IMG/VR virus record: IMGVR_UViG_3300042197_004553
Span: 1-64,000 of that record
Length of the DNA: 64,000 bases
Source of the DNA: a virus
Direction: 5' to 3' (one strand)
Of the stretch, positions 1,789 through 64,000 are shown in pieces. The first letter of the stretch is position 1; every line of letters begins with the position of its first letter. Under the pieces are notes generated by a model. The model made no database searches. It was not told where the DNA came from and saw only the letters and a program-made list of their open reading frames with translations. The position numbers and the translations under genes are program-made.

Positions 1789-2597
1789 CGTTATTGTTGC
1801 GAATTAGCCGTTTCCGCTAATTCTCCTACACTTTCATGCAGGACCAGACTATGTCATCTTGTAGCGCCGCACGTTGCAACGGTTACACAAACCTTTTGCC
1901 GCATGTGGTGACGTCGTTAAGCCGCAGGAAATACACGCGGTGTATCGCGTGCGCCACCGACCCGACTTTAATAATTTTGGTGTGGCGTATTTTGCTGTGC
2001 GGGCTGCTTGCATTTCTGTTTTGTGCTCTAACAAATGACAGCGTCTGCAAACAGTTTCAAGATTGTCTAAAGCGTTGTTCGGGTTTTTATTTCCGCGCCC
2101 TAAACGATCTTTGTGGTGTACGACCAGTTTTTTCGTTTTGCCGCAACGAGAACACTGTTGTTCGTCACGGGCAAGTACCGCTGTGCGTTTACCGTCAAAA
2201 TGCCGCCGTTCGCGGTTAATTTTGTATTGCGGTAAAATTTCAGCGCGATATTGTTCGTACCATTGTTTTTTGGCGTTCGCTATTCTTTGACGATTTTTGT
2301 CGTCATTGCGGTAGCGATCCAAATAACAGACTTTGCACAGTCCTTTTGCCATATGTAGCCGATCAGTTCGACCACATGATTGGCAGCAAGGATACTTTTT
2401 TGACCACATCTCAAAACTCTGCTACAAGGCCCCCATTTCGAACCCACTTGGGTCCTACGATCTTTCGATCTAGTCGTTGAACCTTCCAAGTATATGGCTA
2501 CTTGGCTTGGCTGCAAGTTGCCCGGCTTACGCTGAGGGGTTTCTTGCAATTAAAGGGCTTTTCACTGATTTGTCGCCAAATCAGGGGACTGAATTCA
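1789..2597 (-). ncRNA. Group I self-splicing intron (809 nt, IA-like)
   Basis: 5' exon ends in U with P1 GGAU/UG-AAUU-CAGUCC (U.G at the splice site); P2 CUGAUUUG-GCGA-CAAAUCAG; P AAUUGCAAGAAA, Q AACUUGCAGC, R GUUCAACGACUA, S ACAUAGUC; P8 CUUGUAGC/GCUACAAG; P9 with a GAAA loop; terminal G at 1789; splicing restores VLFVD|EIEK. Confidence 0.95.
1849..2409 (-). CDS. Intron-encoded HNH homing endonuclease
   Basis: RD...CSRCG...VHHKD...NN..DNLETVCRRCH HNH motif flanked by two CxxC..H.AKGLCxxC repeats; lies in the P8 loop with its stop in the S element; AT-richer than the flanks. Confidence 0.9.
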   Translation of the reverse strand: MWSKKYPCCQSCGRTDRLHMAKGLCKVCYLDRYRNDDKNRQRIANAKKQWYEQYRAEILPQYKINRERRHFDGKRTAVLARDEQQCSRCGKTKKLVVHHKDRLGRGNKNPNNALDNLETVCRRCHLLEHKTEMQAARTAKYATPKLLKSGRWRTRYTACISCGLTTSPHAAKGLCNRCNVRRYKMT

Positions 2598-3545
2598 ATC
2601 CACAAAGAGCACACACGGAGCCATGGCGTCAATCTGCTTGAGCGCGCGTCGCATGTTGCCCTCGGACTCGCCGACGAACTTACCCATCAGACTGCCGAAG
2701 TCGAGCATGACCGTGGGCCGGCCGACCTCGTTGCCCAGCGCCTTGGCGAACTGGGACTTGCCGCAGCCCGGAGGCGACAGCAGAAGCACGCCCTTGGGTC
2801 GCTTGTCCACGTTCTTTTCGCCCTGCCGACGCATGGCGCGCAGGCAGAATTGCTTGAGGTTCTCAAGACCGCCAAGGTGCTTGAAATCTGCATCGCCGCG
2901 GTAGAGCGACAGCGTGCCGCTTTTTTCCAGCGTCTGAGCCTTGATGCCCCAGATCGTGTCGGCTTCCAACTTGTTGTTGCGGACCAAGGACAGCGCGAAC
3001 GCGTTCTCGGCCTCCTGCCGGGTCAGACCGCGGGCGGCTTCGACGACGCTGGTGACTTGGTCGTCGGTTGGCTTTTCAAACGCCGAGCCCTCGCCGAACA
3101 GGTCGTTGCAGATCGACTTGAGTTGCTCCTCGTCGGGCAACTCGTGATGAACGACGGTGAAGAGTTTTTCGACCTCGGGCTGGAGCGCCACCGTCGGCGA
3201 AATGACAACAAAATACTTGCCTTCACCTTTGCCCTGCACGACGCGGTTGGCCAGCGCTTGCACGACCTCGGGGTTGGGCAGATAGCGATGGAAATTCTTG
3301 AGCACGAGAATCTGCGTCTCGTGCGTCTTGGGCGCGTTATCCAGCGCCCGGATGGCCTGCAGCGGTCCCGGCGCCGGCGTGCCGCTGTACATCTGGCGGT
3401 CGATGTCCCAGACGTCGCAGCCCCACTTGCGCTCCTCGGCCAACTTGCGCAACGTATCCACCGCGTCGTCGCACTCCAGCGACTCGATCCAAATACCAGA
3501 AAAGCCCGCACAGACCAGTTCTTCGATTTCTTTCTTGAGCGACAT
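2598..3545 (-). CDS. Ycf46-like AAA+ ATPase, exon 1
   Basis: LGGLENLK, PKGVLLLSPPGCGKS (Walker A), KFVGESEGNMR pore loop; ends at APCVLFVD. Confidence 0.92.
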
Positions 3546-8021: not shown

Positions 8022-9950
8022 ATGGCACCCAATATCCCGCAGGCTGAGCCCGCGAATCACGAAGCAGCGCTGGAGGTACCGAACGTCGGTATTCGCTCGC
8101 TGCTGGAAGACTTGATGTCAATTGACATCAAAGATCAAAAGTCTGTGCAAGCACGCATGGGCGTGTTAGGTGCTCTTGCCAAACAGTCTGTATTTCCTTC
8201 GTTGGAGCCGTTGCTGCCGATGGTGTTGAACCTCAACGGCAAGCCATACACGCTCCACAATCACTACACTTTTTCTCCATTATTTCGTTGCCTGACGCCG
8301 AAAAATCAGGTGTGGTGCACAGGCCGACAGGTCTCGAAATCGACCAGTCTGGCGGCGCATGGTGTAGTGGTGGCGAACTCGATTCCGTTTTTTAAGACAT
8401 TGTTTATTACGCCGCTATACGAGCAGATTCGACGGTTTTCAAATAACTACGTGCGGCCGTTCATCGACCAGTCGCCGGTTAAGTCGTTGTGGTCGGGTAC
8501 AACGACAGAAAATTCGGTGTTGCAGCGTTCGTTCAAAAACAACTCAATGATGTTGTTCTCTTTTGCGTTGTTGGATGCTGATCGCGTGCGTGGCGTTTCG
8601 GCCGACCGCGTTTGCATAGACGAAGTTCAGGACATGGACCCTGATCATGTACCCATCATTCAAGAAACGATGTCGTACAGTAAATGGGGTACCATGTATT
8701 TCACGGGGACGCCAAAAACTTTCGACAATTTAATTTACGGTTTATACAAGCGGTCATCGCAGGCGGAGTGGTTTATTCCTTGCCACGCATGCGGACATTG
8801 GAACATCCCGGCGTTGGAATACGACCTCGACGCCATGATCGGCCCGTACAACGAGCACATCAGCGAAAAGTATCCCGGCACCGTGTGCGCGAAGTGCCGT
8901 AAACCAGTCAGCCCGCGGCATGGCCGCTGGGTACATCGCTATCCGGAACGGCGGTGGCAGTTCGCCGGCTATCACGTGCCGCAGATTATTCTGCCGCTGC
9001 ACTTCTCCGACGCTGAAAAATGGGCGACGCTGTTAATGAAGCGGGAAGGTTTTGGCAACATGACTCAAGCCCAGTTCTACAACGAGGTCATGGGCGAAAG
9101 TATCGATACGGGCCAGAAACTTGTCAGCGAGACTGAATTAAAGGGCGCCTGTATCTTGCCGTGGGAAAACAAGAAAGAACCCGAGCCCGCCAGTTATGCA
9201 AATTTGCAAAAGTACAAAAACCGCATCTTGGCGATCGACTGGGGCGGTGGCGGCGAAGAAGGCGTCAGTTTTACGGCGATCGCGGTGCTGGGCTTTTCGT
9301 CAGAAGGAACGATCGACGTGTTGTGGGGCAAGCGCCTCCTCATCGGCGGCGACCATCTGCAGGAAGCGATCGAGTGCATGAAATGGTGTAATCGGTTTCA
9401 GTGCGATCTGGTGGCCCACGACTACACCGGCGCCGGCACGGTTCGTGAAACCGTCATGGTGCAGGCCGGATTTAACCTCGACCGCGTCATGGCCATGCGG
9501 TTGGTGCGGTCGGCGGCGCAGGACTTGATCGTGTTCAAACCGGCGACCGAGATCAATCACCGCCAGCACTACAGCCTCGACAAAACACGCTCGCTGCTCT
9601 ACACGTGTCAGGCGATCAAGATGAAGCAGGTGCGGTTCTTTCAATACGATTGGTCGTCGCAGGACGCCCCGGGATTAGTTGCCGATTTCTTGGCGCTCGT
9701 CGAGAACAAGGCTGAATCGCGCCTCGGCGGCGATATTTACACCATTACCCGCAACACGTTGTTGAGCGACGACTTTGCGCAGGCCGTGAATCTTGGCGCC
9801 GCGGGCTTGTGGCACGTCAATCAAGCGTGGCCGAACTTTGCCCGACTGGCAGGTATTGCGCAGATCACAGAGCGACAAGCGGCTTCTCAGCAGCCTGTCG
9901 ATGACTGGGCTGACGACGCGATCGGCGGTCAGTATTTCGGCGGGTATTGA
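8022..9950 (+). CDS. terL: Terminase large subunit (GpA-like)
   Basis: GRQVSKST Walker A variant, VRGVSADRVCIDEVQD Walker B, GTPKT coupling motif, CHAC/CAKC Zn sites, FYNEVMG, AIDWG nuclease motif. Confidence 0.9.
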   Translation: MAPNIPQAEPANHEAALEVPNVGIRSLLEDLMSIDIKDQKSVQARMGVLGALAKQSVFPSLEPLLPMVLNLNGKPYTLHNHYTFSPLFRCLTPKNQVWCTGRQVSKSTSLAAHGVVVANSIPFFKTLFITPLYEQIRRFSNNYVRPFIDQSPVKSLWSGTTTENSVLQRSFKNNSMMLFSFALLDADRVRGVSADRVCIDEVQDMDPDHVPIIQETMSYSKWGTMYFTGTPKTFDNLIYGLYKRSSQAEWFIPCHACGHWNIPALEYDLDAMIGPYNEHISEKYPGTVCAKCRKPVSPRHGRWVHRYPERRWQFAGYHVPQIILPLHFSDAEKWATLLMKREGFGNMTQAQFYNEVMGESIDTGQKLVSETELKGACILPWENKKEPEPASYANLQKYKNRILAIDWGGGGEEGVSFTAIAVLGFSSEGTIDVLWGKRLLIGGDHLQEAIECMKWCNRFQCDLVAHDYTGAGTVRETVMVQAGFNLDRVMAMRLVRSAAQDLIVFKPATEINHRQHYSLDKTRSLLYTCQAIKMKQVRFFQYDWSSQDAPGLVADFLALVENKAESRLGGDIYTITRNTLLSDDFAQAVNLGAAGLWHVNQAWPNFARLAGIAQITERQAASQQPVDDWADDAIGGQYFGGY

Positions 9951-10527: not shown

Positions 10528-10840
10528 GGTTTGCGTGCAGTCGCGCGGAGGCGACCGCGGCGTCGTAGGCGCCCTTGGCGAGAATACGCTCACGCACCGC
10601 GTTGCGCTGCCGCTCTAAGTACTGCTGGTACTCTTCGTCGGTGTTTACGAGCGCTTCGGCGGACGAGAACGAATGGGCCTTGCCGGTCAACGGGTTGTCG
10701 CCGGAGTGCATGATGCGACCAACGGCGGCCATTTTGACGTTAATACGGGCATCTTCAATCGCCTGCTCAGCCGACACGGCGTCGGCCAGCCGCAGCGCGG
10801 CGGCTTCGATACCAGTCACAAGATTCTCAGTCTGGGTCAT
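10520..10840 (-). CDS. Hypothetical helical protein
   Basis: ORF with AAGGA upstream. Confidence 0.65.
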   Translation of the reverse strand: MTQTENLVTGIEAAALRLADAVSAEQAIEDARINVKMAAVGRIMHSGDNPLTGKAHSFSSAEALVNTDEEYQQYLERQRNAVRERILAKGAYDAAVASARLHANHG

Positions 10841-11051
10841 AGTTACTCAGGTCCTTTTTGGTTTGGATTTCTTTCAGCGTAGGGATTCTTTTCGGATGCT
10901 TTTCCGGGTGGCAAAGCCTGCAAGAGGTTTTGTTGCATCCGTTGTGTGATTTACGGTAGCGGCCATGCGTGCCGTATTCGTAGCCATAGAGTTGCCGGGC
11001 TTCGTCTCGCCGGCGGTCAATAATGTGCTTTTCTTCGTGATACCGTTTCAT
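10827..11051 (-). CDS. Small basic Cys/His protein
   Basis: GAGG SD; C...C.LCHP motif. Confidence 0.6.
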   Translation of the reverse strand: MKRYHEEKHIIDRRRDEARQLYGYEYGTHGRYRKSHNGCNKTSCRLCHPEKHPKRIPTLKEIQTKKDLSNYDPD

Positions 11052-11070: not shown

Positions 11071-11141
11071 AGCCCCCAGAAGGAGTCAAACCCTCATCCG
11101 CTGATTACAAATCAGCCGCATTATCATTATGCTATGGGGGC
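11071..11141 (-). tRNA. trnT: tRNA-Thr(UGU), CCA not encoded
   Basis: Cloverleaf: GCCCCCA/TGGGGGC acceptor, GCAT/ATGC D stem, GCTGA-TTTGTAA-TCAGC anticodon arm, GAGGG-TTTGACT-CCTTC T arm. Confidence 0.9.
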
Positions 11142-11156
11142 AATTATTAACGGCTA

Positions 11157-12617
11157 TTAGACCCGTGCCGGGGCGGCGCGCTTCCAAAGCGGATGCGCAA
11201 CGGCATCCGATTGCCGCAAAACGCACTTCTCTTCAATCTTTGTTCCGAGAATCGGCAACGTCTTCTTTGTCTTGACGTTCTTTGCCGCCTCGCGGAAATC
11301 AGCGGCGTACTGCTCTAACAATTCTATATCAACAGCCACGTTATTGCGAAGGCACTGGCTGACGTACACTTTGATGCCGTTCAGCGCCTTTTCAATCTCT
11401 GTGATACTCAGATAAAGACCGCGCGTGTTGATTTGCGTTATGGCGTTAGCCTTGTCGTTCGGACCAAGGTAGCGGCTGTCCAGCAATTCCTTTATCGCGG
11501 TGACGAGATTAGGAATCGCGGCCACCAACACGATAGACACGGTAGAAACGTCTGCGTACTCGTAGGCAGCGGCCGCCGCCGGGGGCGTTTCAACAGGCGT
11601 TTCAACCGCGGCGGCTTTTCCAGCACGCAGTTCCGCGATCTCCTGTTCCATGTGCGCCATCTTAGCCAATACAGCGGCCAACTGCGACGAATCGAGGTTA
11701 GACGGGCTGGGCGGCGGTTCAGGTTGCCGTTTGTGGTCCTTCAACATTGGACTGCGCTTCTGTGTGGTCGTGGGTCGTTCGTCTTTGAAGTCGCCGTCGA
11801 CAGCGACGTCTAATCCAAGTGCGGTCAATCTAATGCCGTGGGCTTTCATCTTGGTTTTACTGTACGGGTTCCGCCGTTCTGAAAAATTTTTAATAAGGCC
11901 GTGCTGCTTCAAAAAGTCGCGGCACCGCGTGTAGTTGTGCCAACCGAAATTGAGTTTTTGCGCGCTAATTGGCGTTTTGTCGCCGTCAGGGGTGTCGAAA
12001 TGAAACGCGCACATCGCGCCCAGCAGATCGGCGGGCGTGCCGGTGGTGCTGCCCCACGTTTCACTGTGATTTCTGACGGTAGCAATCAGTCGCCGCACGT
12101 TGTCTTTATTGTTCGCCGCTGGCGTGGTGTTTTGTTCTGGCATGCGGGGGAATTCCTCTTGGGTAATGGCCGCAACGGTCTCGACAAGCACGGCCGGCAC
12201 GGTAGAAATTTCTTTTTGTTTCGGCGTGATCAGGCCGAATTCAGTCAATAACGCCGCAAGCATGTTGTCGCTCATGGCGGAATGTTTTGCGAGATTTTCT
12301 TCGTCTGTCAAATATTCAATTGCCGGCCGTGTCAGTCCGAACGCGCTGCGCTTGTCTACCGCTTTCGGGCGCGCAAGGCGATCATCGGACCAATCGTCGA
12401 TGACCTCAAACAGTACGCGTTTGGCTTTAAGCGCGCGAAGCGCCGTAACAACAAATGCGTATGCGTTCTTTTTTTCCTTCTCTTTGCGGCGGTGCAGCGC
12501 TTTACAGACTTGGTTTGTAATTTCTTGCGCGTGCAATGTGTTGTCGTTTCCGCGGGCCATGTCTTCGACAAAAACGCGCAGCACAGCGAAAAGGATTTTT
12601 TGTGTTTCTTTAGTCAT
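11157..12617 (-). CDS. Hypothetical protein (486 aa; possible winged-helix segments)
   Basis: Long ORF with GAGGAG SD. Confidence 0.7.
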   Translation of the reverse strand: MTKETQKILFAVLRVFVEDMARGNDNTLHAQEITNQVCKALHRRKEKEKKNAYAFVVTALRALKAKRVLFEVIDDWSDDRLARPKAVDKRSAFGLTRPAIEYLTDEENLAKHSAMSDNMLAALLTEFGLITPKQKEISTVPAVLVETVAAITQEEFPRMPEQNTTPAANNKDNVRRLIATVRNHSETWGSTTGTPADLLGAMCAFHFDTPDGDKTPISAQKLNFGWHNYTRCRDFLKQHGLIKNFSERRNPYSKTKMKAHGIRLTALGLDVAVDGDFKDERPTTTQKRSPMLKDHKRQPEPPPSPSNLDSSQLAAVLAKMAHMEQEIAELRAGKAAAVETPVETPPAAAAAYEYADVSTVSIVLVAAIPNLVTAIKELLDSRYLGPNDKANAITQINTRGLYLSITEIEKALNGIKVYVSQCLRNNVAVDIELLEQYAADFREAAKNVKTKKTLPILGTKIEEKCVLRQSDAVAHPLWKRAAPARV

Positions 12618-16299: not shown

Positions 16300-17467
16300 G
16301 ACAACACCGTTTGATCACACGCAGGACGTCAGTGGCCGTGAAACCCACCGTTTAATCACGTTGTTTTCTGCGCCCGATTTTGTAAAAGCTGCCTCGCACG
16401 AGCGCACGCACGGTGACGGAACCCTGCCGCGGCACATGTACGCCGATATGTACCATAAACTGTATCCATGTCATTCGGCGCCTGCAACATGGCTATCGGC
16501 GCTCTTCTTTGCCGACAAGCGGGCGGAGTTTGACGCCAAACGGGCTGCCGAAATTCAAGAACGTCTTCACGCCTCGGCCCGCTTTTTCGGTATTTTAGGG
16601 GCCGTGCAGGAGATGGAAGAAAAAACGGCTCAGGCCAGCGCTGCCGATGTAAACAATTTGGCGGACGCCGATTTTGCCATTGTGTGGGAAAGCGCAGCCG
16701 GAAAAGAACGGCACTGGCCACTGCGGAACGCGGTGGAAGTAAAATTTGCAGCCGCCGGATTTGCCCAGTGGCGCGACGAGTTTGTCTTCAGTGACCGGCA
16801 GAAGATTGCCGAGCGCATTCTGGAAAAGGCCGCCCATTACGGCGCCGACATTGGCGAGCAGGAGCATATGCTGGCTCTGACAGCCGGCCAAGGCGTCTGC
16901 GCGGCGAAGGTGGCCGGCGAGATGCTCCGTGCCCGCGCGACGCTGGTGGCCCGAACCAACGAGCCGGCCGCGGTGGAGATGCGCAAGTTAGCCGCGATTG
17001 TGGAGAGCAACCCAGAACAGGCCCGGACGCAAGACGTCCGGATTAAGATTGCGGCCGCCGTAGACGAGTTTGACCGGGCAAATCATCTCAACCGGTTGTA
17101 CGACGCGGGCGGGCTGGAGCGCCCCGAAGAAGTGCTTTTTGCCGTCACGGAAAAGGCTGCCCGCGATTTCATGAGCCAGAACGTGGAAACAACCACAGGA
17201 AATGTGTACGCCTTGGAAGACCTTGAGAAACTGGCCGTCGATGACGTGCGCAGTTGGCTCGGTGACGATTTTGCGGATGCGGTCACGGCGGGCGGCGTGT
17301 ACCTCGATCGGGACAAGTTAGCGGCGATTGTGCCGACATTGGATCGCGGAATGGCGGCGGCCCTCGATCGGCTGATGCAGGAGAGCAAGATGGCGGCCGT
17401 CGTGCAGACGAAAGCGGCCGAGTCGCTGCTGCCGTTAGAAAAACTTTTCGCTCTTGCGGCTGAATAG
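16298..17467 (+). CDS. Hypothetical protein rich in K-x-A motifs (candidate prohead core protein)
   Basis: ORF from ATG 16298; 15 of 18 Lys are in KxA. Confidence 0.7.
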   Translation: MTTPFDHTQDVSGRETHRLITLFSAPDFVKAASHERTHGDGTLPRHMYADMYHKLYPCHSAPATWLSALFFADKRAEFDAKRAAEIQERLHASARFFGILGAVQEMEEKTAQASAADVNNLADADFAIVWESAAGKERHWPLRNAVEVKFAAAGFAQWRDEFVFSDRQKIAERILEKAAHYGADIGEQEHMLALTAGQGVCAAKVAGEMLRARATLVARTNEPAAVEMRKLAAIVESNPEQARTQDVRIKIAAAVDEFDRANHLNRLYDAGGLERPEEVLFAVTEKAARDFMSQNVETTTGNVYALEDLEKLAVDDVRSWLGDDFADAVTAGGVYLDRDKLAAIVPTLDRGMAAALDRLMQESKMAAVVQTKAAESLLPLEKLFALAAE

Positions 17468-17482
17468 TTGATTCGGTATAGT
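17454..17482 (+). promoter_or_regulatory. Sigma70-type promoter for a candidate sRNA
   Basis: TTGCGG (17454-59), 17-nt spacer, TATAGT (17477-82). Confidence 0.6.
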
Positions 17483-17487
17483 CCGCG

Positions 17488-17558
17488 GCTCAAGGATGAT
17501 TTACGGCGAACCAAGGAGCGGCTCGCAGCACCCGGCAGGAGGCCGGGTGTTTTTTTTT
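17488..17558 (+). ncRNA. Candidate CsrA-sequestering sRNA (CsrB/RsmZ-like, ~70 nt)
   Basis: Three GGA motifs in hairpin loops (UCA-AGGA-UGA; CGA.CC-AAGGAGC-GG.UCG; GGC-AGGAG-GCC) between a promoter and a terminator, 277 nt from csrA. Confidence 0.6.
17529..17558 (+). terminator. Intrinsic terminator
   Basis: CACCCGGC-AGGAG-GCCGGGTG followed by T9. Confidence 0.85.
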
Positions 17559-17590
17559 CTTTCCGGTCGCTTTTTTGCGGACGATTTTTG

Positions 17591-17860
17591 TCAAAAAGGT
17601 GACTGAATTTCGTCACGCTTGTTGATCGGTTTTTGCGGCTCGGCGCCAAAGACGCGGGCCAATACGCGCCGCATAAAATTGGGTCCGGGCGTCGAAGGGA
17701 TTGCGGCTGGGTCGATATTTTGCGAGGAGAGGCCGCCAGCGGGGTTTTCCGGGCTTTTTTGGCTCTCCAGGTATTCCATCCAGGCTTCGTATTCCTGCCG
17801 CTCGTAATACGATTCTGTGGGGATATAGGGGTCTTCAGGTAGCCGGTCGTTCCAGCCCAT
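17591..17860 (-). CDS. Hypothetical protein
   Basis: ORF overlapping the csrA 3' end. Confidence 0.6.
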   Translation of the reverse strand: MGWNDRLPEDPYIPTESYYERQEYEAWMEYLESQKSPENPAGGLSSQNIDPAAIPSTPGPNFMRRVLARVFGAEPQKPINKRDEIQSPF

Positions 17861-18038
17861 GGGGTTTTTTCTCTGGTTGTGTTAACAGTTCGCGGCGCAT
17901 GACCGACACGTCTGGGGCTGCAGTGACTCCCAGCCTGACTTTGTCGCCCACGATGTCCACGACTTTAATCGTGATTACGCGGCCGTCAGGAATTGTGATG
18001 ACAATATCTTCGTTTTTCTTTCTCGACAGGACTAACAC
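17835..18038 (-). CDS. csrA: Carbon storage regulator CsrA/RsmA family translational regulator
   Basis: GTG start; MLVLSRKKNEDIVI...ITIKVVDIVGDKVRLGVTAAPDVSVMRREL matches the CsrA signature including the RNA-binding Arg. Confidence 0.93.
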   Translation of the reverse strand: MLVLSRKKNEDIVITIPDGRVITIKVVDIVGDKVRLGVTAAPDVSVMRRELLTQPEKKPHGLERPAT

Positions 18039-25500: not shown

Positions 25501-26469
25501 CTACCCGCAATTGCCGGCAATGGCGTTTGTGGCTAGTTCCACGATGACGCTGTGCGTGAGTGGGTCGGTAGTGATATTTACACCCGTGCCGCCGACAAAA
25601 ATCACGTTCGGGCCGCTCACGCCGTTGATGGTGGCGACAAGTTCGTCACACGCCGGTCCGCCGCTAAAGAATTTGCTGCGCACTTCCGGCGTGGTTTCCG
25701 TCGCGCCGAACAATACGGGTTTCGGCTCGTCGGGATAGAGCGGAACCTCGCTGCCATTAGCGCACAGGGCCGCGTCAGCTTGCTCGCCGCTATTCCGGCC
25801 TGCCGTAAAACTGAGTTCGTTGGCAGCCGGGCGCTGGCGAATGATGGCGTTGTAGCCCTCTTTGAACCGGATGTCGCCGCTGAGGCAACGCTTATTGACG
25901 ATGACGCGCCGCGGAGGGTCGGCGTCCGGTGTGCAACTGGAACGGCTTTCCGCCCGGGAAAGGTTGCCGACTGTGATCGCCCGAAGATAGCCGCGGGTCA
26001 AACTTTGCACGCGCGCCGGTTCGAGCACGAAGACCGTCGCCGAACACGCGAGTGTGCCGACGCCGGGCAGGGCGGCGCGGAGGTCATCCATCGGCCCGGT
26101 TACTACAAACCCGCTCCACGCCGGTTCTGTCGCGCAACTGTTGCCGTCTTTGACATACGGCGGGGCTTCAACGTGTTCGACGAGCCACTCGTCTGCGCCA
26201 ACCGGGCGACGAAACACAAGCGGCGCGGAGGCGCCGGGCGCGTCGGTCCGCAATTCAAATTCAAAGGCGTCGCCGGTCGTGCCGGAGACACGGCGGACGG
26301 CGTGCAACCACACAGTATGCGTTTTGGCGTCAAATTCGCTGTCGAGGCCCATGATGACGCCCGCGTCTACGATCGCCGAGTACGGCACGGCGCTGGTGGC
26401 CTGGGCCGGCGTAAACACGAATGGGTACGCGCGGTACTCGTTGTCGTTGTAAAATCCGGGGCGCGGCAT
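25501..26469 (-). CDS. Tail/baseplate-associated protein, paralog family member
   Basis: N-terminal YNDNEYRAYPF, C-terminal TINGV. Confidence 0.7.
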   Translation of the reverse strand: MPRPGFYNDNEYRAYPFVFTPAQATSAVPYSAIVDAGVIMGLDSEFDAKTHTVWLHAVRRVSGTTGDAFEFELRTDAPGASAPLVFRRPVGADEWLVEHVEAPPYVKDGNSCATEPAWSGFVVTGPMDDLRAALPGVGTLACSATVFVLEPARVQSLTRGYLRAITVGNLSRAESRSSCTPDADPPRRVIVNKRCLSGDIRFKEGYNAIIRQRPAANELSFTAGRNSGEQADAALCANGSEVPLYPDEPKPVLFGATETTPEVRSKFFSGGPACDELVATINGVSGPNVIFVGGTGVNITTDPLTHSVIVELATNAIAGNCG

Positions 26470-31395: not shown

Positions 31396-33552
31396 TTATT
31401 CCGTAGCGCTTTGTACGATACCCGCAATCCGCAACACACCCACGTCGTTATCGTATGCGTCGCCCGGCGTGAGTTGCCGCTCGATGGTGACAAGCACTGT
31501 ATCGCCGGCTTGTACGGCAAACTCTGCGCTGTCACACTCGGCAACCGTGTCGATTGGCAACTGTTTGGCGGATGACGAAAAATCTAAACTGGTATCAACG
31601 GTCGGGAGTTGCAGGGCTCCCGAGAAAGGCCGCGGCAGGCGGCGATACGACATGTACAACTCGGGCAGTTGCGAGTTGGTCAGTGGCGTACCGAAGCGAC
31701 CGAACAAACGCACGCGGATTTTCATTTTGAGATTCTGATCGACGTTGGCCTCCGGCACGTTTAGCCGGACGCGCAACAACGAATTCTGCCCGGCCGGAAA
31801 TCCCAGGTACGGGATGTCCATATACAGCCGTTCGACCGTGTCGCTCAGCCGGATGATTTGCGGCGCGAGTTCCCGCTCCACCAGATCGTCGGTGTAGTCC
31901 ACCCGGAGTAACCCCTGATGAATGGGCACGGGGTTTTCTGTGGTGATGCCGAGGGCGGTTTTTTCGGCCGACGTCAGCAGCCGACCGGACACCAGTTTGT
32001 AGGTGCCCGTGCCTGCGGCTGTCGTCGCGACTGGCGTCCCCGCCAGTGTTGTGGCGATTTTAAACGTATTCGCCGTCAGGTCTTTGGCGGCGATAAAATA
32101 CTCCGCATTGGCTGTGAGCCCGGCGGGGAGAACGCTCGCGGCGTCCGGGACGAGGCGGACCTTGGCACCTGGGCCGAACCCGTGCCCTGTGGCGGTAAAC
32201 ACAGTTTCTACGCCGTGGGCGATTGTGACTGCTCGCGGCGTGTTTCGACTGCCGCGGATGGCTAGATACGTCGGCGTCGTGGTGACCACTCCTTCGGCCG
32301 CCCAACCGACGACCAATTGGTGGCGATTGGCGACGCTTTTCACCACCTGCCCGCCAATGCCTTCTTGTTTTGCTGTCTGTAAATCGAGATTAAGTTTCAA
32401 ATCGCCGGTGGTCGCCGGCAAATCGTCGCAGTTTGTGACGGCAACGGGAGCCGTGATTGTTTCGCCATTGACGATGTCTTCGTCCGGCGCCAGACTCGTT
32501 ACGACACTGCGGTTGTTTCCCAACAGCATCCGCAGGAACACGACAGACAGCCGCATGGCTTCTCCGCGCGGGCACTCCGATCCGGGACTAGTCGGGTCGA
32601 CCCACGTTGGCGAGTAAGTCGCCGGCCACGGGACGTCGTTGGCGCAGTCGCTCATCCACCAAATGCCGTTGACGTCGCAGACCACCAATCCCGAGCGCCC
32701 GAGTGGCACCTCTGTGGCGCCGAGGAGGTTTGCGCCTTTGTCCCACAGCACGGATACGGACTGAATCGGGATCGGCGGCCAGACATTGGCCAGTGCCGCG
32801 TGTTTTTGAATGTTGTATCCGAACACCGCGCCAGCCGGTGCTTTCCCGTTAAACACGGCGTGGCTGGCCGGCAGCCAACCCTGCAGTTCCGCGTTGGGAT
32901 TGGTGACGATGCGGCGCGGTTGCGGGTCGGTGGTGAGCGTGTTCGTGCCGGCGGGCTGCGCGACGAGGTCGAAACGATAATGTGTGTGCTCTTCGACATA
33001 GTCGCGGGCTTGCGGCATGACGAGGACGCGCAACTGGTCAGAACAGTTGTCGCGAGAGCCCTGCACGTGACAGACCACGACGGTAACCGGTGGCTTTTGC
33101 TTGGAGAGTTTTCCAGGCTCCACGGCTGACAAGTAATATTTACCCGGCGTCACCGTTTCCCCGATTGATTGTGTTAACTCCGGAAAAGTGACCAGACCCC
33201 GCAGCACAATGTCGGCACGGTCGGCGGCCTTTTTCTTGTAGCACATGCCGACGCAGTCCGAGGACGGCTGGACGCTAAAAATCTGCGTGGTGTCGTCTAG
33301 CGTGACGGCGACCATCGCTGGTTCGTAGCGGCTGGCGGCCCAGTTCCAGTACACCGGCTGCCCCGGTTGCACGTCCGGAGACACGGTGGCGTCAACTTCG
33401 AAAAGCGCGCGGCCCAGTTCGGCCGCGTCCAGCCGATCTTTTAAGTACTCGGTACGCTCTTCAAGCGTGCGGTCGGGGCGGCCGACGACGCCAGCCTGCA
33501 CAGGTTCGCCTGTGGCGACGTGTTTGATGTTGTACGGCCAGTTTCCGGACAT
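31396..33552 (-). CDS. Tail/baseplate structural protein (718 aa)
   Basis: N-terminal V.AGVVGRP...LEERT.YLK resembles fibre attachment domains; position in the tail cluster. Confidence 0.65.
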   Translation of the reverse strand: MSGNWPYNIKHVATGEPVQAGVVGRPDRTLEERTEYLKDRLDAAELGRALFEVDATVSPDVQPGQPVYWNWAASRYEPAMVAVTLDDTTQIFSVQPSSDCVGMCYKKKAADRADIVLRGLVTFPELTQSIGETVTPGKYYLSAVEPGKLSKQKPPVTVVVCHVQGSRDNCSDQLRVLVMPQARDYVEEHTHYRFDLVAQPAGTNTLTTDPQPRRIVTNPNAELQGWLPASHAVFNGKAPAGAVFGYNIQKHAALANVWPPIPIQSVSVLWDKGANLLGATEVPLGRSGLVVCDVNGIWWMSDCANDVPWPATYSPTWVDPTSPGSECPRGEAMRLSVVFLRMLLGNNRSVVTSLAPDEDIVNGETITAPVAVTNCDDLPATTGDLKLNLDLQTAKQEGIGGQVVKSVANRHQLVVGWAAEGVVTTTPTYLAIRGSRNTPRAVTIAHGVETVFTATGHGFGPGAKVRLVPDAASVLPAGLTANAEYFIAAKDLTANTFKIATTLAGTPVATTAAGTGTYKLVSGRLLTSAEKTALGITTENPVPIHQGLLRVDYTDDLVERELAPQIIRLSDTVERLYMDIPYLGFPAGQNSLLRVRLNVPEANVDQNLKMKIRVRLFGRFGTPLTNSQLPELYMSYRRLPRPFSGALQLPTVDTSLDFSSSAKQLPIDTVAECDSAEFAVQAGDTVLVTIERQLTPGDAYDNDVGVLRIAGIVQSATE

Positions 33553-33574
33553 CCTTGTCCTCCGGCGTTAATGA

Positions 33575-51546: not shown

Positions 51547-54500
51547 TCAGACCACTAAGTGCAGTTCGATGTTGTTCAGCGGCGCCGGAACAACAAGGTC
51601 CAACACGATTTCGACTCGGTCACGGAGAAGCGGATGCACGTTCAGTTTCCGGATTTCTCCCGAGATCAGTTGCGAGCCCAATTCCAGCGTGTTGCCGTTG
51701 TTGATCAAGAAGTAGATGATCGACTCAATCTCGAACCGCAGGCGACGGATCATGCCAGCTTGCACGTTGGTCCGGCCGATGTACGGCTTCAGCCGCCGCA
51801 GGAACAAGTACGACATGCTGTCCACGTTCCGGCGGATCATCTCTTCCCGACGATTCAGGTCGAGGTTGTCCGTCGTGAGCGCGTGCCGCGTGTGCGGGGT
51901 GCCGTCGCGGTCTTCCGTGACGATCCACACGCCGGCTTCCGCCATACGATTTAACTGCGTTTCGTTGAAGTACTTGTACGACCGACTGTAGTCGTCGAAA
52001 CCGGCAACTTCAACATTTGTCAGCGGCTGGTGCGGCACCACGCCCGACACAAGCCCGGCAAGCGCCGCCGCCAGATAGTAGCCCGGCTGCAGTGTGCCAG
52101 CCTCGCCCACCTGATCGGGCCACACGCCCACCACGCGCCGATTCGACAGCGAACCGGCCTGCTGCGCAATGTCCTCGGCAACTTCGTTGCGATTCCGGTT
52201 GTGCCAGATTTCAAACCGCTGCGCCTGCGTCACGGCCGCGTCGGCGCCCGTGTACAGAAGCAGCGAATTCTCCGACAGCACCTGATCCACAACGTATTCG
52301 TCGTACTGCTCCTCGCCGAGCGAGTCGACGACGAAGTTGTACCGGACGATATCGCCGGGTTGCACGTTATTGGCAATAAAGTACCCGCTCGAACCCGTCG
52401 GGACCTGCAACCGGGTGTACTGGTTGCCCGTCGCGTTCGGGTCGTCGCCGAGCGTCGCCAGCGTGTCATTTTCAATGACATTGCCGGACACGCCAGCAAT
52501 CGGCGCGCCCTGGCCAACCACCAGTTGCTTGGGCTCTGCCTTGAGGGCGAAGAACCCGGCCTTCCAGTTGTTGGCGATCTCGTTCGATTCGCCGGTGATG
52601 TGCGCAGCCCAGAGATTCTGAACCGAGCGATCAAACGTCAACGGAACGAGGTTATACAGATCGTCGCGACCCTTGAGGCGCTCCAGCACCTCGCCCCAAC
52701 TGTCGAGATCAGGGCCGGTTTCGCGATAATTCTCGGCATGGTATTCAACCGGATGCGCCACGGCGGTGTACTTCACCACGGTGCCGTTGCTGTTAGAGAG
52801 CGCCTTGTACACGCCCCACTTCAGCGGATTATCCGGATGCAACTGGCCCGCAATGTCGTCCAGATCGGCCACCGTGCTAATCGAATTGACCTCATCGGCC
52901 AAATCGGCCAGAAATTCACGATACTCGACGTAGAGGGCGCCAGCGGTGACCGGCAGCGGTTGTTCTACGCCGTCCTCGGTCCACTCGGGGTGGTACGCCG
53001 TGATGCCTTCCTGCACGCAGATTTGCGTGTCCTCGAACCAGTAGTTCGTCAGGTTCGGGGCTTCGGGCCGCGTGCGCGACACCTGAATATCGTCCTTGAT
53101 GAACAACTGCAGGTCTAACGACGTAGCTGCCGCCAGTTCCGACGACAGGTCATCGCGCAGGATTAACTTGCGCACCGGGCCGGCCACACTGGACACCACC
53201 GCGACGTAGAACTTGTCGCCCTTGCGCAGGCCGACGTTTCCAATAGATGCCGTCGCCGTTGCCCCCGTGCCGCCACCGCCCGAAAACGACACCGTCGGAG
53301 CCGACAGGTAGCCGCTGCCCGGGTTAGTGAGCGTGATCGCCGTAACCGCGCCAGAGGCGACCGTGGCCGTCGCCGTCGCCTGGGTGCCGCCAGCCGGCGG
53401 CGCCGACAAGGTTACTGTCGGAGGCGTCGTGTACCCCGTACCGCCGGCGTCCACGGCGACCGACGCCACGGGCGAAACAACCGACAGTTTAACTTTGACA
53501 CCGTTCGTGCCGATTCCGATCGACCCGCCGTTTTGCGTCACTTCCGTCGGGCCAGAGAAATCAAGGCCCTTCACCGTCCGCACGGTGACCTCGGGATAGC
53601 CGTTCGCCGCGGCCGAAATCGCGTCAAACCGGCCACCCTTAGTGACCTCGACAATGTACACGTCATTTTTGCTGCCGGCATACCGGGCAAGAATGTCGCC
53701 GGCGGAGTTGGTGGAGTACGGCGTTGCCGCATCGGAAGCGGCGGTCGCAACGCGAAACGCCTGCCGAACCGACACCACCCACTTCTGCCCGGTCACAAAC
53801 ACGTCCGCCGCCACGCCGTTGTCGTCCGCAGCGTCTTCGCACGCGGTGGTAGACAAAACGTTAAATTTGACGCGCAGCCCGCGTGTGCCAATATTTGTAA
53901 ACTCGTCCATATCCGACGGCACAACGTCATCGACGTCGTCCCGGCCACTCGCGCTCCGGACGCGCAGCCGCGCGGCGGCGCACCCCGATACGCTGCTCTT
54001 CACGACCTGAATCGTGTACTCTTCAGCGACATCGCCGCTGGCCAGCCCGTTGTACAACGAACCGTCCACCGTGGTGAGTTTGACGCAGTTTTCCTTGCCG
54101 GCCACCTGCAGGTAATTGTTGTCGCTGCTCGGGCTGCTGGCGGAGGCGGTGACGGTCGACTGGTTGTTGGCGTCGGCCGAGGCCGGCTTGATCAGCGAGT
54201 TGACGGCATCGCTGGCGAACCCAGTGACTTCCGTCCACAGCGTCTTCTCGTCGCAGGTGTCATTCGTGTTCACGACTGTTCGAACGTAGACCACGTCGCC
54301 CACCTTCACGTCGCGGTCGTTGAACGCGCTGCTCCGAGGATACGCCGACGTGTTGGATTTGAACGAGAGGTTATTCGACTGAATCCAGTTCGACTTGCCG
54401 CTGACGGCGGTGATTGTCGTGGCGGTGTCTTGCAGGTCGTGGTCAAAGTACTTGAGGAGCGCGTTGTCCACGTACAGCTTGCCGTACGACAGGTCAACCA

Positions 54501-54714
54501 CGGACCCGGCCTTCCGGCCCGGCCACGGGTAGCACACGTCGGTCAGCGGATCGTACGCGCCAAGCCCGCTGGCCTGTTTTTCGTCGCGGTCGCTGTAGCG
54601 GTGGAGCACAGCATGCGGACCAGCAACGTGCGCGCGGAGCGGTTCAGTAATCTCCGTCGGGACGATGCTGAACTCTTGGAATACCAGAACCTGTGGCTTA
54701 ATGTAACTCGACAT
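51547..54714 (-). CDS. Tail sheath protein
   Basis: C-terminal AAALAGL...PHQPLTN, QLNRMAEAGV, RHALTT, E....RNVD, VPAPLNNIEL; inserted GGTGYT.PPTV repeats. Confidence 0.88.
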   Translation of the reverse strand: MSSYIKPQVLVFQEFSIVPTEITEPLRAHVAGPHAVLHRYSDRDEKQASGLGAYDPLTDVCYPWPGRKAGSVVDLSYGKLYVDNALLKYFDHDLQDTATTITAVSGKSNWIQSNNLSFKSNTSAYPRSSAFNDRDVKVGDVVYVRTVVNTNDTCDEKTLWTEVTGFASDAVNSLIKPASADANNQSTVTASASSPSSDNNYLQVAGKENCVKLTTVDGSLYNGLASGDVAEEYTIQVVKSSVSGCAAARLRVRSASGRDDVDDVVPSDMDEFTNIGTRGLRVKFNVLSTTACEDAADDNGVAADVFVTGQKWVVSVRQAFRVATAASDAATPYSTNSAGDILARYAGSKNDVYIVEVTKGGRFDAISAAANGYPEVTVRTVKGLDFSGPTEVTQNGGSIGIGTNGVKVKLSVVSPVASVAVDAGGTGYTTPPTVTLSAPPAGGTQATATATVASGAVTAITLTNPGSGYLSAPTVSFSGGGGTGATATASIGNVGLRKGDKFYVAVVSSVAGPVRKLILRDDLSSELAAATSLDLQLFIKDDIQVSRTRPEAPNLTNYWFEDTQICVQEGITAYHPEWTEDGVEQPLPVTAGALYVEYREFLADLADEVNSISTVADLDDIAGQLHPDNPLKWGVYKALSNSNGTVVKYTAVAHPVEYHAENYRETGPDLDSWGEVLERLKGRDDLYNLVPLTFDRSVQNLWAAHITGESNEIANNWKAGFFALKAEPKQLVVGQGAPIAGVSGNVIENDTLATLGDDPNATGNQYTRLQVPTGSSGYFIANNVQPGDIVRYNFVVDSLGEEQYDEYVVDQVLSENSLLLYTGADAAVTQAQRFEIWHNRNRNEVAEDIAQQAGSLSNRRVVGVWPDQVGEAGTLQPGYYLAAALAGLVSGVVPHQPLTNVEVAGFDDYSRSYKYFNETQLNRMAEAGVWIVTEDRDGTPHTRHALTTDNLDLNRREEMIRRNVDSMSYLFLRRLKPYIGRTNVQAGMIRRLRFEIESIIYFLINNGNTLELGSQLISGEIRKLNVHPLLRDRVEIVLDLVVPAPLNNIELHLVV

Positions 54715-54766
54715 GCGAAGGCCTCCGTGCCCCAGTTATTTGTGTGCGGTCAAGTGCTTAGCGAGT

Positions 54767-62504: not shown

Positions 62505-63431
62505 TCAGACAAACGTGACCTTGGCGAGACCGTTCGTGTGACCGAACGAGCCGCCTTGCGTGTTGTAGGCAAAGTACTCAAGCATGTAAGCCTCACGACG
62601 GATGTACATCGTGGTGGGCTCCAACTCGTAGTTCTTGCCGATGAACTTCGGCGAGGCGAACATGTACAACACATCGTTCGGCACGAGGTTCCGCTTGATC
62701 GTGACGATCCAGCGGCAGTTGAGGAAGTTGGTCTCCGCCCAACCGTTCTTGATGATCTCCTGCGAGAAGTCACCACCCATCTCGTCGCGACCAAACTTGA
62801 GGAGTTCCTTGATCGTGATGTTATTCACGAGGCAGGTCTCCACTTCGAAGTGGCTCGGAGTCGAGGGCATAACCTTCAGGGCGTCAACAATCGTCTCGCG
62901 CGTGATGCCGCCGCTGATCGTCACGTTCTGGGGCACGCCCGAAAGAACGTTGTTCGTATCAACAGTGCCCACCGCCGCGTCGAGCGCGTTGATGAACTTG
63001 GAGTCTTCCTCGGCCAGCATGTCCTTGATCATGTTGTCCGAAAGCACCTGACGGATGTCGATGACATACGTCCGGAGTTCGTCAACGTCCTTCACAGCGC
63101 GGGGCGACACGATCCGGTCAAACATGACGCGGTAGCGCGGGCCACGGATGTAGAAGTTGATCGGAAGTGTCGCAAACGGGAGCGACACAGCCGCCGGAGA
63201 ATCGGGCTCCTTGTCCACCACCTTGACCGGCTTGTCAGTGTCGACCTGACGATCCAGTTCATCGTTGGTGATGGTCAGCGGCGGCATAATCCGCCGGTAG
63301 AACCCGTCTTCACGCATCTTGGTGCGCGTGAAGTCGTTAACCGCATCGATGGCCTGCTTCTGCATGCCGGGGGTGTCGAGTTGCTCGAAGAGCGTTTCGT
63401 TGAGCAATTGGATTTCTTGCGGAGTGGGCAT
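62505..63431 (-). CDS. Major capsid protein (probable HK97 fold)
   Basis: 308 aa with strong codon bias; R..MREDGF.RRIMPP, KDMLAEEDSKFI, Y.FA.PKF.GK; GGAGG SD; context. Confidence 0.8.
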   Translation of the reverse strand: MPTPQEIQLLNETLFEQLDTPGMQKQAIDAVNDFTRTKMREDGFYRRIMPPLTITNDELDRQVDTDKPVKVVDKEPDSPAAVSLPFATLPINFYIRGPRYRVMFDRIVSPRAVKDVDELRTYVIDIRQVLSDNMIKDMLAEEDSKFINALDAAVGTVDTNNVLSGVPQNVTISGGITRETIVDALKVMPSTPSHFEVETCLVNNITIKELLKFGRDEMGGDFSQEIIKNGWAETNFLNCRWIVTIKRNLVPNDVLYMFASPKFIGKNYELEPTTMYIRREAYMLEYFAYNTQGGSFGHTNGLAKVTFV

Positions 63432-63461
63432 TGTAAGAACCTCCATGTTCTATGTAGTGAG

Positions 63462-64000
63462 TTAGGCGGACGCCGCTTGTACGCCATTCCAGTTGGACGC
63501 GCCCGGGAGATAAACGCTCCAGAACGACAGGGCTTGAATCCCGTTGTGATTCGAAACGGCCCCGCTAGACACAACACCGACCACTGGCGTGGTGAACTGA
63601 GTGACGCTGTAGTTCGTCAGACGGCCGTCCGTGCTGGCCGGCGTGCTGGCATCCGCCCGCGTGGCCGACAGCAGGTCGCCCGGCTGATAGGTATTCCCGG
63701 TGACGAATTCCGTCGTCGAAATTTCGTAACCGCCGGTCGCCACCAGCCCGGACATCTTGCCGGTCGGCGCAATCGCCCGGTGCATGAACTTACCGCCGGC
63801 GGTCGTGCCGGGGTTGCTCACGTCAGCGTCGGCGCTGCCGTTGAGCAAAAAGATCGCGGGGCACGTTTTGTGCGCGCCGGGAACGAACTCGCCACTTGTG
63901 TTCAAGTGGACCACTCGGCCCGCCACCACGTCAAAAGAGATGCTGCTCGCCAACTTGGCGCTGTAGTCGAGCGAAGCCATGTCGAACCAGCCCTTTTTAA
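63462..64000 (-). CDS. Head decoration/cement protein (putative; frame open to the window edge)
   Basis: Directly upstream of the capsid gene; beta-rich, YEISTTEF...Y.PGDLL. Confidence 0.6.
   Translation of the reverse strand, partial: KKGWFDMASLDYSAKLASSISFDVVAGRVVHLNTSGEFVPGAHKTCPAIFLLNGSADADVSNPGTTAGGKFMHRAIAPTGKMSGLVATGGYEISTTEFVTGNTYQPGDLLSATRADASTPASTDGRLTNYSVTQFTTPVVGVVSSGAVSNHNGIQALSFWSVYLPGASNWNGVQAASA

Follow-up and report, generated by a model that had tools for sequence, protein, structure and literature searches.

A covarying Shine-Dalgarno hexaloop hairpin at capsid and other virion genes of uncultured jumbo phages: a candidate CsrA-type operator

The Shine-Dalgarno (SD) sequence of the major capsid protein gene in an uncultured freshwater jumbo phage is displayed in the loop of a small hairpin which, judging from the compensatory changes in its stem across homologous leaders, appears to be a real, conserved RNA-level translational operator. 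There is about an even chance that a CsrA-family protein reads this hairpin, and others of the same type in front of further genes of the phage family, as an operator, in which case it would occlude the SD of high-copy virion genes. The DNA analyzed here (the window) corresponds to positions 1-64,000 of an IMG/VR virus record of 79,093 bp, the completeness of which is approximately 39%. The relatives of this record are metagenome phages of 170-235 kb, and DNA of the window is present in freshwater metagenome sequencing runs, one of which may be its origin, with small shares in the others; the source is an uncultured freshwater jumbo phage from a family with genomes of about 200 kb.

The hairpin is located on the minus strand, where the leader reads AGAAC-AUGGAG-GUUCU-UACA-AUG, as the sequence-only reading of this DNA had it, with five Watson-Crick pairs and a C-G closing pair. 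The 5' arm of the stem, AGAAC (63451-63447), and the 3' arm, GUUCU (63440-63436), enclose the loop AUGGAG (63446-63441), and the spacer UACA (63435-63432) sets the stem 4 nt from the AUG; the whole SD hairpin (63436-63451, minus strand) is delineated by sequence, folding and covariation. The SD, GGAGG, consists of loop positions 3-6 and the closing G, so that GGA occupies loop positions 3-5, and the UAA of the upstream gene (63464-63462) ends 10 nt 5' of the stem. The hairpin had been described as perfect, which holds for the pairing but not for the strength: the isolated fold has a free energy of only -3.1 kcal/mol, and the pair probability is 0.08-0.38 in contexts of 61-181 nt, where a rival pairing, GGAG:CUCC, that is absent from most relatives competes with the hairpin. 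Hairpins of this type generally fall between -3 and -5 kcal/mol, and in context their pairs form with a median probability of about 0.2. The maintenance of complementarity in hairpins this weak fits a motif that is stabilized by a protein.

The gene that follows the hairpin (62505-63431, minus strand; 308 aa) encodes a homolog of major capsid proteins, in agreement with the original assignment. Its product matches the major head protein family PHROG 2522 (E 1.5e-5) and, in a tblastn comparison, aligns along 98% of its length, at 27.7% identity, with Gp226 of Salmonella phage Arash (E 9e-24), which is annotated as the major capsid protein and is abundant in the virion proteome by mass spectrometry, with 1,333 spectra (PMC10585845). 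An AlphaFold2 model built from a 24-sequence alignment (pLDDT 52) was too poor for a fold search, so the assignment is based on sequence evidence. The AUG in the hairpin loop (63446-63444) is in frame with the capsid open reading frame, and ORF finders therefore call a 313-aa product. A start at this position, which would give the longest frame, was rejected because the loop AUG is not conserved: relatives with an ACGGAG loop lack it, whereas the N-terminus MPTQQE that begins at the AUG at 63431-63429 (minus strand) is conserved, placing the true start at 63431.

The strongest evidence that the hairpin is a functional RNA element comes from homologous leaders. The same capsid protein, at 54-98% identity, is encoded in 65 loci, and covariation was assessed in 42 distinct homologous leaders against 500 shuffles. 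Paired cells account for 86.2% of the total compared to 67.4% in the shuffled sets, 34 cells are changed on both sides compared to 8.7, and the covariation score is 0.439 compared to 0.131, with none of the 500 shuffles reaching the observed value in any of the three measures and with lower scores in all slid registers. Compensatory changes are found in four of the five pairs of the stem, as illustrated by the variants AGAAC/GUUCU, AAGAC/GUCUU, GGAAC/GUUCC, GGAC/GUCC, GCAC/GUGC, UAAC/GUUA, AAAC/GUUU and CGAUC/GAUCG, C-G closes the stem in 40 of the 42 leaders, and the 6-nt loop register is constant in all relatives that possess the hairpin. The GGAGG is invariant and is preceded by A and then a pyrimidine (loop A-Y-GGA-G); complementarity to the anti-SD alone explains the conservation of GGAGG(U) and hence also that of part of the top of the stem. 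The G.U pairs are on the sense strand and correspond to A.C mismatches on the other strand, which points to a structure formed in RNA and not to a palindrome in the DNA. If the sequence-only reading were wrong, the stem might be expected to decay among relatives that carry csrA; it is instead kept and covaries among them, although one genome without csrA, discussed below, has such hairpins as well. The capsid leaders of csrA-negative relatives and of Arash have no such hairpin.

The device is not confined to the capsid gene. Immediately upstream, a head gene encoding a 193-aa protein (63462-64000 in the window and on to 64043 of the genome, minus strand) has the SD hairpin UAGAC-ACGGAG-GUCUA (genome 64062-64047, or 2047-2062 of locus L002, minus strand), which is present in most of the relatives' capsid loci, with covarying stems. 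This protein might be of the capsid cement or minor capsid type; the lead comes from a protein atlas, in which 'Phage_cement' is indicated with a very high score and the Pfam family is found in 15-24% of the cluster members. The tail sheath gene (51547-54714, minus strand; PHROGs 279 and 2839) is preceded by GGGGC-ACGGAG-GCCUU, with two G.U pairs (54718-54733, minus strand), the leader of its ortholog in one relative (G006) reads UUAGGC-AUGGAG-GCCUGA, and an 802-aa gene of the window's genome is also preceded by a hexaloop SD hairpin. In distant relatives, the hairpin is found before other head-module genes, encoding proteins in the size ranges of approximately 141-172 aa and 410-450 aa. Counted over entire genomes, coding-strand instances in the SD position number from about 12 (G006) to about 40 (G038) in the relatives. 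Thus, the hairpin is indeed a feature of the capsid leader, as originally described, but family-wide it is shared with many other genes and is not capsid-specific. The number of such hairpins in the window's genome alone does not exceed chance: ANGGAN hexaloop hairpins of 5 bp or more number two in the 79-kb record, compared to 0.60 +/- 0.81 in dinucleotide shuffles. Both of these fall exactly on the SDs of adjacent head genes. A further hexaloop hairpin, GGAC-AAGGAU-GUCC, with four Watson-Crick pairs (33547-33560, minus strand), holds in its loop the first bases of the AUG of a 718-aa gene (31396-33552) and could be a CsrA-type site outside an SD.

The presence of the hairpins across the family was assessed at all sites with GGAG in the SD position in front of ORFs of 80 aa or longer, with flank pairing of at least 4 bp counted for each loop register and with a null obtained by permuting the 3' flanks among the sites. 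In the six csrA-positive genomes, hexaloop hairpins are 3-5 fold enriched over the permuted-flank controls: 4 vs 0.7 in the window's own record, 12 vs 2.9 in G006, 31 vs 6.7 in G038, 19 vs 5.1 in G040, 12 vs 4.1 in G041 and 8 vs 2.6 in G042. The counts in the four csrA-negative genomes are 3 vs 3.2 (G047), 6 vs 3.8 (G048), 5 vs 4.3 (G050) and 9 vs 5.7 (G043, 84% complete). Within the family, the enriched register is NNGGAN, with two nucleotides before and one after GGA, and is confined to the csrA-positive genomes; the other peak, seen in three genomes, is one pair wider on each side and is produced by the same hairpins with at least 5 bp. Altogether, hairpins account for 8.7% of the GGAG SD sites in the six csrA-positive genomes and for 2.6% in the four csrA-negative ones (Fisher p = 1.5e-8, ignoring phylogeny, the contrast being largely between one clade and its outgroup). 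The capsid hairpin and the genome-wide enrichment are both absent from the three near-complete relatives that lack csrA. The stem is also coupled to the identity of the first loop nucleotide, which in the csrA-positive genomes is A in 81% of the hairpin sites but only in 28% of the non-hairpin SD sites (p = 2.5e-22); the respective values in the csrA-negative genomes, 39% and 33%, do not differ significantly. Of the 86 hairpin sites of the csrA-positive genomes, 56 are closed by C-G.

The exception among the relatives is G043, which lacks csrA at the site syntenic to that of csrA in G040, with the flanking genes abutting, and has no csrA elsewhere in its 183 kb. This genome nevertheless keeps hexaloop hairpins of 5-7 bp before structural genes for proteins of 448, 161 and 948 aa. 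Their persistence in G043 could be explained by any one of a host CsrA, a csrA gene in the missing 16% of the record or a CsrA-independent function. Of 11 hairpins in G040, 3 are retained in G043 compared to 4 in the csrA-positive G042, so turnover is high among csrA-positive genomes as well. Outside the family, no enrichment was detected in the unrelated csrA-positive LR756511 (8 vs 5.7 in the 200 kb sampled of its 595 kb), and the gene leaders of the csrA-positive Bacillus phage Dartukuta (MW749009.1) have no hexaloop SD hairpins. Carriage of csrA by itself, therefore, does not imply such hairpins, and the association is not independently replicated. Dartukuta, with a 61-kb genome that encodes an integrase, has two annotated CsrA-like genes (25862-26056 and 10703-10876), one of which sits in the structural module, between the genes for a structural protein and a minor tail subunit.

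The high-affinity consensus of Csr/Rsm proteins is an ANGGAX hexaloop set straight on a stem (Duss et al. 2014, PMC4005645), with the C-G closed ACGGAU loop at the hcnA ribosome binding site as the prototype, and nucleotides added between loop and stem or loss of N lower the affinity 10-1000 fold (PMC4005645). The capsid hairpin has the same published geometry, ANGGAX directly on the stem, closed by C-G and overlapping the SD, which bears out the comparison drawn in the sequence-only reading. The likeness can be seen almost letter by letter, given that the hcnA site is UUC-ACGGAU-GAA and phage relatives read UUC-ACGGAG-GAA. As in the hcnA/RsmE system of Pseudomonas protegens/fluorescens CHA0, the phage sites combine the A-N-GGA-X hexaloop, C-G closure and location of GGA within the SD; unlike in hcnA, the GGAGG of the SD places a G at loop position 6, there is one site per leader, the mRNAs are those of phage structural genes, and binding is predicted. 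Regulated mRNAs typically carry a second GGA within reach of the CsrA dimer, about 10-63 nt away. The homologous capsid leaders have one GGA site each, with no second conserved GGA within the bridging distance of the dimer, and the GGA located about 47 nt upstream of the capsid site in the window is missing from most relatives.

A candidate reader is encoded by the phage itself. The csrA gene (17835-18038, minus strand) encodes a 67-aa protein with a GTG start and the N-terminus (M)LVLSRK, and the original identification of a phage-encoded CsrA proved genuine: the product scores 55 bits against PF02599, above the gathering threshold of 27, and contains both the LxLxR[KR] and the VxVxR motifs. 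It aligns to B. subtilis CsrA (1t3o), the best match in the PDB, and to RsmE (2jpp), with MLVLSRK at the N-terminus and VSVMRRE in the VxVxR region. In the records of relatives, csrA is present in 26 of 50, and in 17 of the 20 with a completeness of at least 90%. Species-representative genomes yielded no bacterial protein closely related to that of the phage, and the csrA leaders of the family, inspected for signs of autoregulation, mostly lack the hairpin. One relative, G038, encodes two CsrA domains (74 and 44 bits) in a single 184-aa frame (11292-11729, minus strand; loci L074/L095), possibly a tandem 'single-chain dimer' CsrA, and the SD of this gene lies in the hexaloop hairpin AUCGA-AAGGAG-UCGAU. 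Two separate csrA genes are present in each of the genomes G041 and G031.

Under the CsrA reading, the reader would most likely be the phage's own CsrA, possibly along with that of the host. The bound dimer would cover the SD and stabilize the marginal hairpin, so that binding of the 30S subunit would be held back on the mRNAs for the capsid, cement-like, tail sheath and other virion proteins until the repressor is titrated or outcompeted; binding, repression as the direction of the effect and the relief of repression are what we infer. Beyond this, it is possible, although doubtful, that the jumbo phage family runs a Csr regulon of its own, in which the phage CsrA acts on ANGGAG SD hairpins at about one tenth of the genes with an SD, above all at those that encode the capsid, cement-like and sheath proteins. 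Such a regulon would time or dose the self-assembling virion proteins, with an antagonist other than the small RNA proposed at first.

That small RNA, a candidate sponge at 17450-17575 (plus strand) that carries three GGA motifs along with a strong terminator whose loop is AGGAG, had been suggested to release the capsid mRNA, a suggestion that found no support. An Rfam search identified no Csr/Rsm small RNA and no family matched by the candidate, its fold is unremarkable (z-score -0.5), and sequences resembling it were detected neither in the vicinity of csrA, in 29 such loci from relatives, nor at any place in the records of five relatives. The region was accordingly rejected as a CsrB/RsmZ-type sponge. 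A scan for clusters of GGA-loop hairpins employed criteria that were too loose, such that any signal was inseparable from the background. A search for FliW genes was negative for the window's record and for five complete relatives.

The alternative that fares best is a hairpin that works without CsrA, as a habit of this clade, either keeping the SD single-stranded or protecting the 5' side of the cistron; a device of this kind would increase translation, or insulate it, within polycistronic mRNAs that are GC-rich and structured, and would need no dedicated repressor. This explanation is a tentative one that we consider possible but on the whole unlikely. It accommodates the location of the hairpins on the genes for the virion proteins of highest copy number (those of the capsid and sheath and the cement-like protein), their persistence in G043 and the lack of hairpins in unrelated csrA-positive phages, and the 3' half of the motif, GGAGGU, is by itself merely a strong SD. 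CsrA-type recognition, however, predicts the combination of a stem, a 6-nt register and coupling of the stem to the loop A1, whereas SD display alone predicts neither the strict register with the stem directly on the loop nor the coupling. The pyrimidine at loop position 2 is similarly unexpected under SD display, given that an optimal SD would have A in this position. Furthermore, the csrA-negative G050 shows no enrichment despite a GC content of 66%, which indicates that GC content is not the cause, and csrA-negative relatives and Arash express their capsid proteins without the hairpin.

It is considerably less probable that the hairpins are read by another RNA-binding factor of the phage or the host, for instance, a dedicated translational repressor or a T4 RegB-type endoribonuclease that targets GGAG, with only a coincidental likeness to CsrA targets. 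The loop always contains GGAG, most proteins of the phage family are without an assigned function, and the csrA-less G043 retains its hairpins, all of which would be compatible with such a factor. Against it, coincidence would have to account for both the ANGGAX-on-stem match and the association with csrA, and no RegB homolog (PF10715) was detected in four records, in a search without a positive control. Finally, a chance or DNA-level origin, with the hairpins being palindromic operators or promoters for a multisubunit phage RNA polymerase, is highly improbable: although the hairpin count within this genome is not above that in shuffles and the phage encodes an RNA polymerase beta' subunit, the stems vary freely, each with its complement (AGAAC, AAGAC, GGAAC, GCAC, UAAC, CGAUC), and the hairpins lie on the coding strand at a fixed distance from the start codon, and the covariation, together with the confinement of G.U pairs to the sense strand, rules out the DNA palindrome or late-promoter version.

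Small hairpins or sites that include the SD or the start codon, and through which a phage protein times or doses translation, are well known from the classical phage operators, namely those of the MS2/Qbeta coat protein on the replicase hairpin and of T4 RegA, gp32 and gp43. The present sites would be alike in these respects but differ in the proteins and motifs involved, in that the candidate repressor is a CsrA homolog and the operator is found on many genes. Another parallel is the CsrA-FliW-Hag system of B. subtilis, whose CsrA, with an MLVLSRK-type N-terminus, is of the kind closest to the phage protein; B. subtilis CsrA represses flagellin (Hag), a self-assembling structural protein made in very high copy number, at a site that overlaps the SD. 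The differences are that no FliW gene was detected in the phage record or its five complete relatives and that the phage leaders carry one site, whereas hag carries two CsrA sites. CsrA homologs are common on phages and plasmids, and their assumed targets are host genes. Mobile carriers of CsrA/Rsm proteins similar in this respect to the phages analyzed here include F116-like and phi297-like Pseudomonas phages, Vibrio phages, coliphage PTXU04 and the plasmid that encodes RsmQ, but their proteins have been proposed to manipulate the host regulon, unlike in the reading favored here. A csrA annotation is found in 83 records of cultured phages. A 2025 study, which describes itself as the first test of the role of CsrA in a phage life cycle, reports that knock-down of csrA in PTXU04 resulted in smaller plaques (PMC11879866). 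None of the literature searched describes a phage whose own virion genes carry CsrA-type operators.

The hairpins described here thus provide a sequence-defined set of candidate CsrA targets on the late genes of the phage itself, and the approximately 60 natural variants of a single operator amount to a ready mutational series. If CsrA binds to them, these phages would have adopted a well-understood post-transcriptional switch of bacteria for the control of viral late-gene translation, a viral counterpart of the control of flagellin by CsrA. If it does not, the strict A-N-GGA-G hexaloop device would still call for another reader, which would be of interest in itself.

Several other features of this genome can be pointed out. 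The window encodes a tRNA-Thr (UGU; 11071-11141, minus strand) and the large terminase subunit (8022-9950, plus strand; PHROG 675, E 1.7e-56), the gene for which is on the strand opposite to that of most genes. Beyond the window, an RNA polymerase beta'-like subunit (Rpb1 domain 5) is encoded at genome positions 74592-77723 (L002 12592-15723, minus strand), indicating that the phage family has its own multisubunit RNA polymerase, as does the distantly related Arash; an intein, in which LAGLIDADG and Hint domains were identified, interrupts this subunit. Directly upstream of the cement-like gene, there is a gene for a 143-aa protein (genome 64084-64515; L002 2084-2515, minus strand) that has a sub-threshold similarity to the glycine-radical domain PF01228 (21.7 bits, with a cut-off of 22.2) and may be a GrcA-like spare glycyl-radical module. 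The window also contains a group I intron (1825-2607, minus strand) that matches the full-length Rfam model RF00028 with 72.6 bits and encloses a 186-aa ORF (1849-2409), presumably a homing endonuclease.
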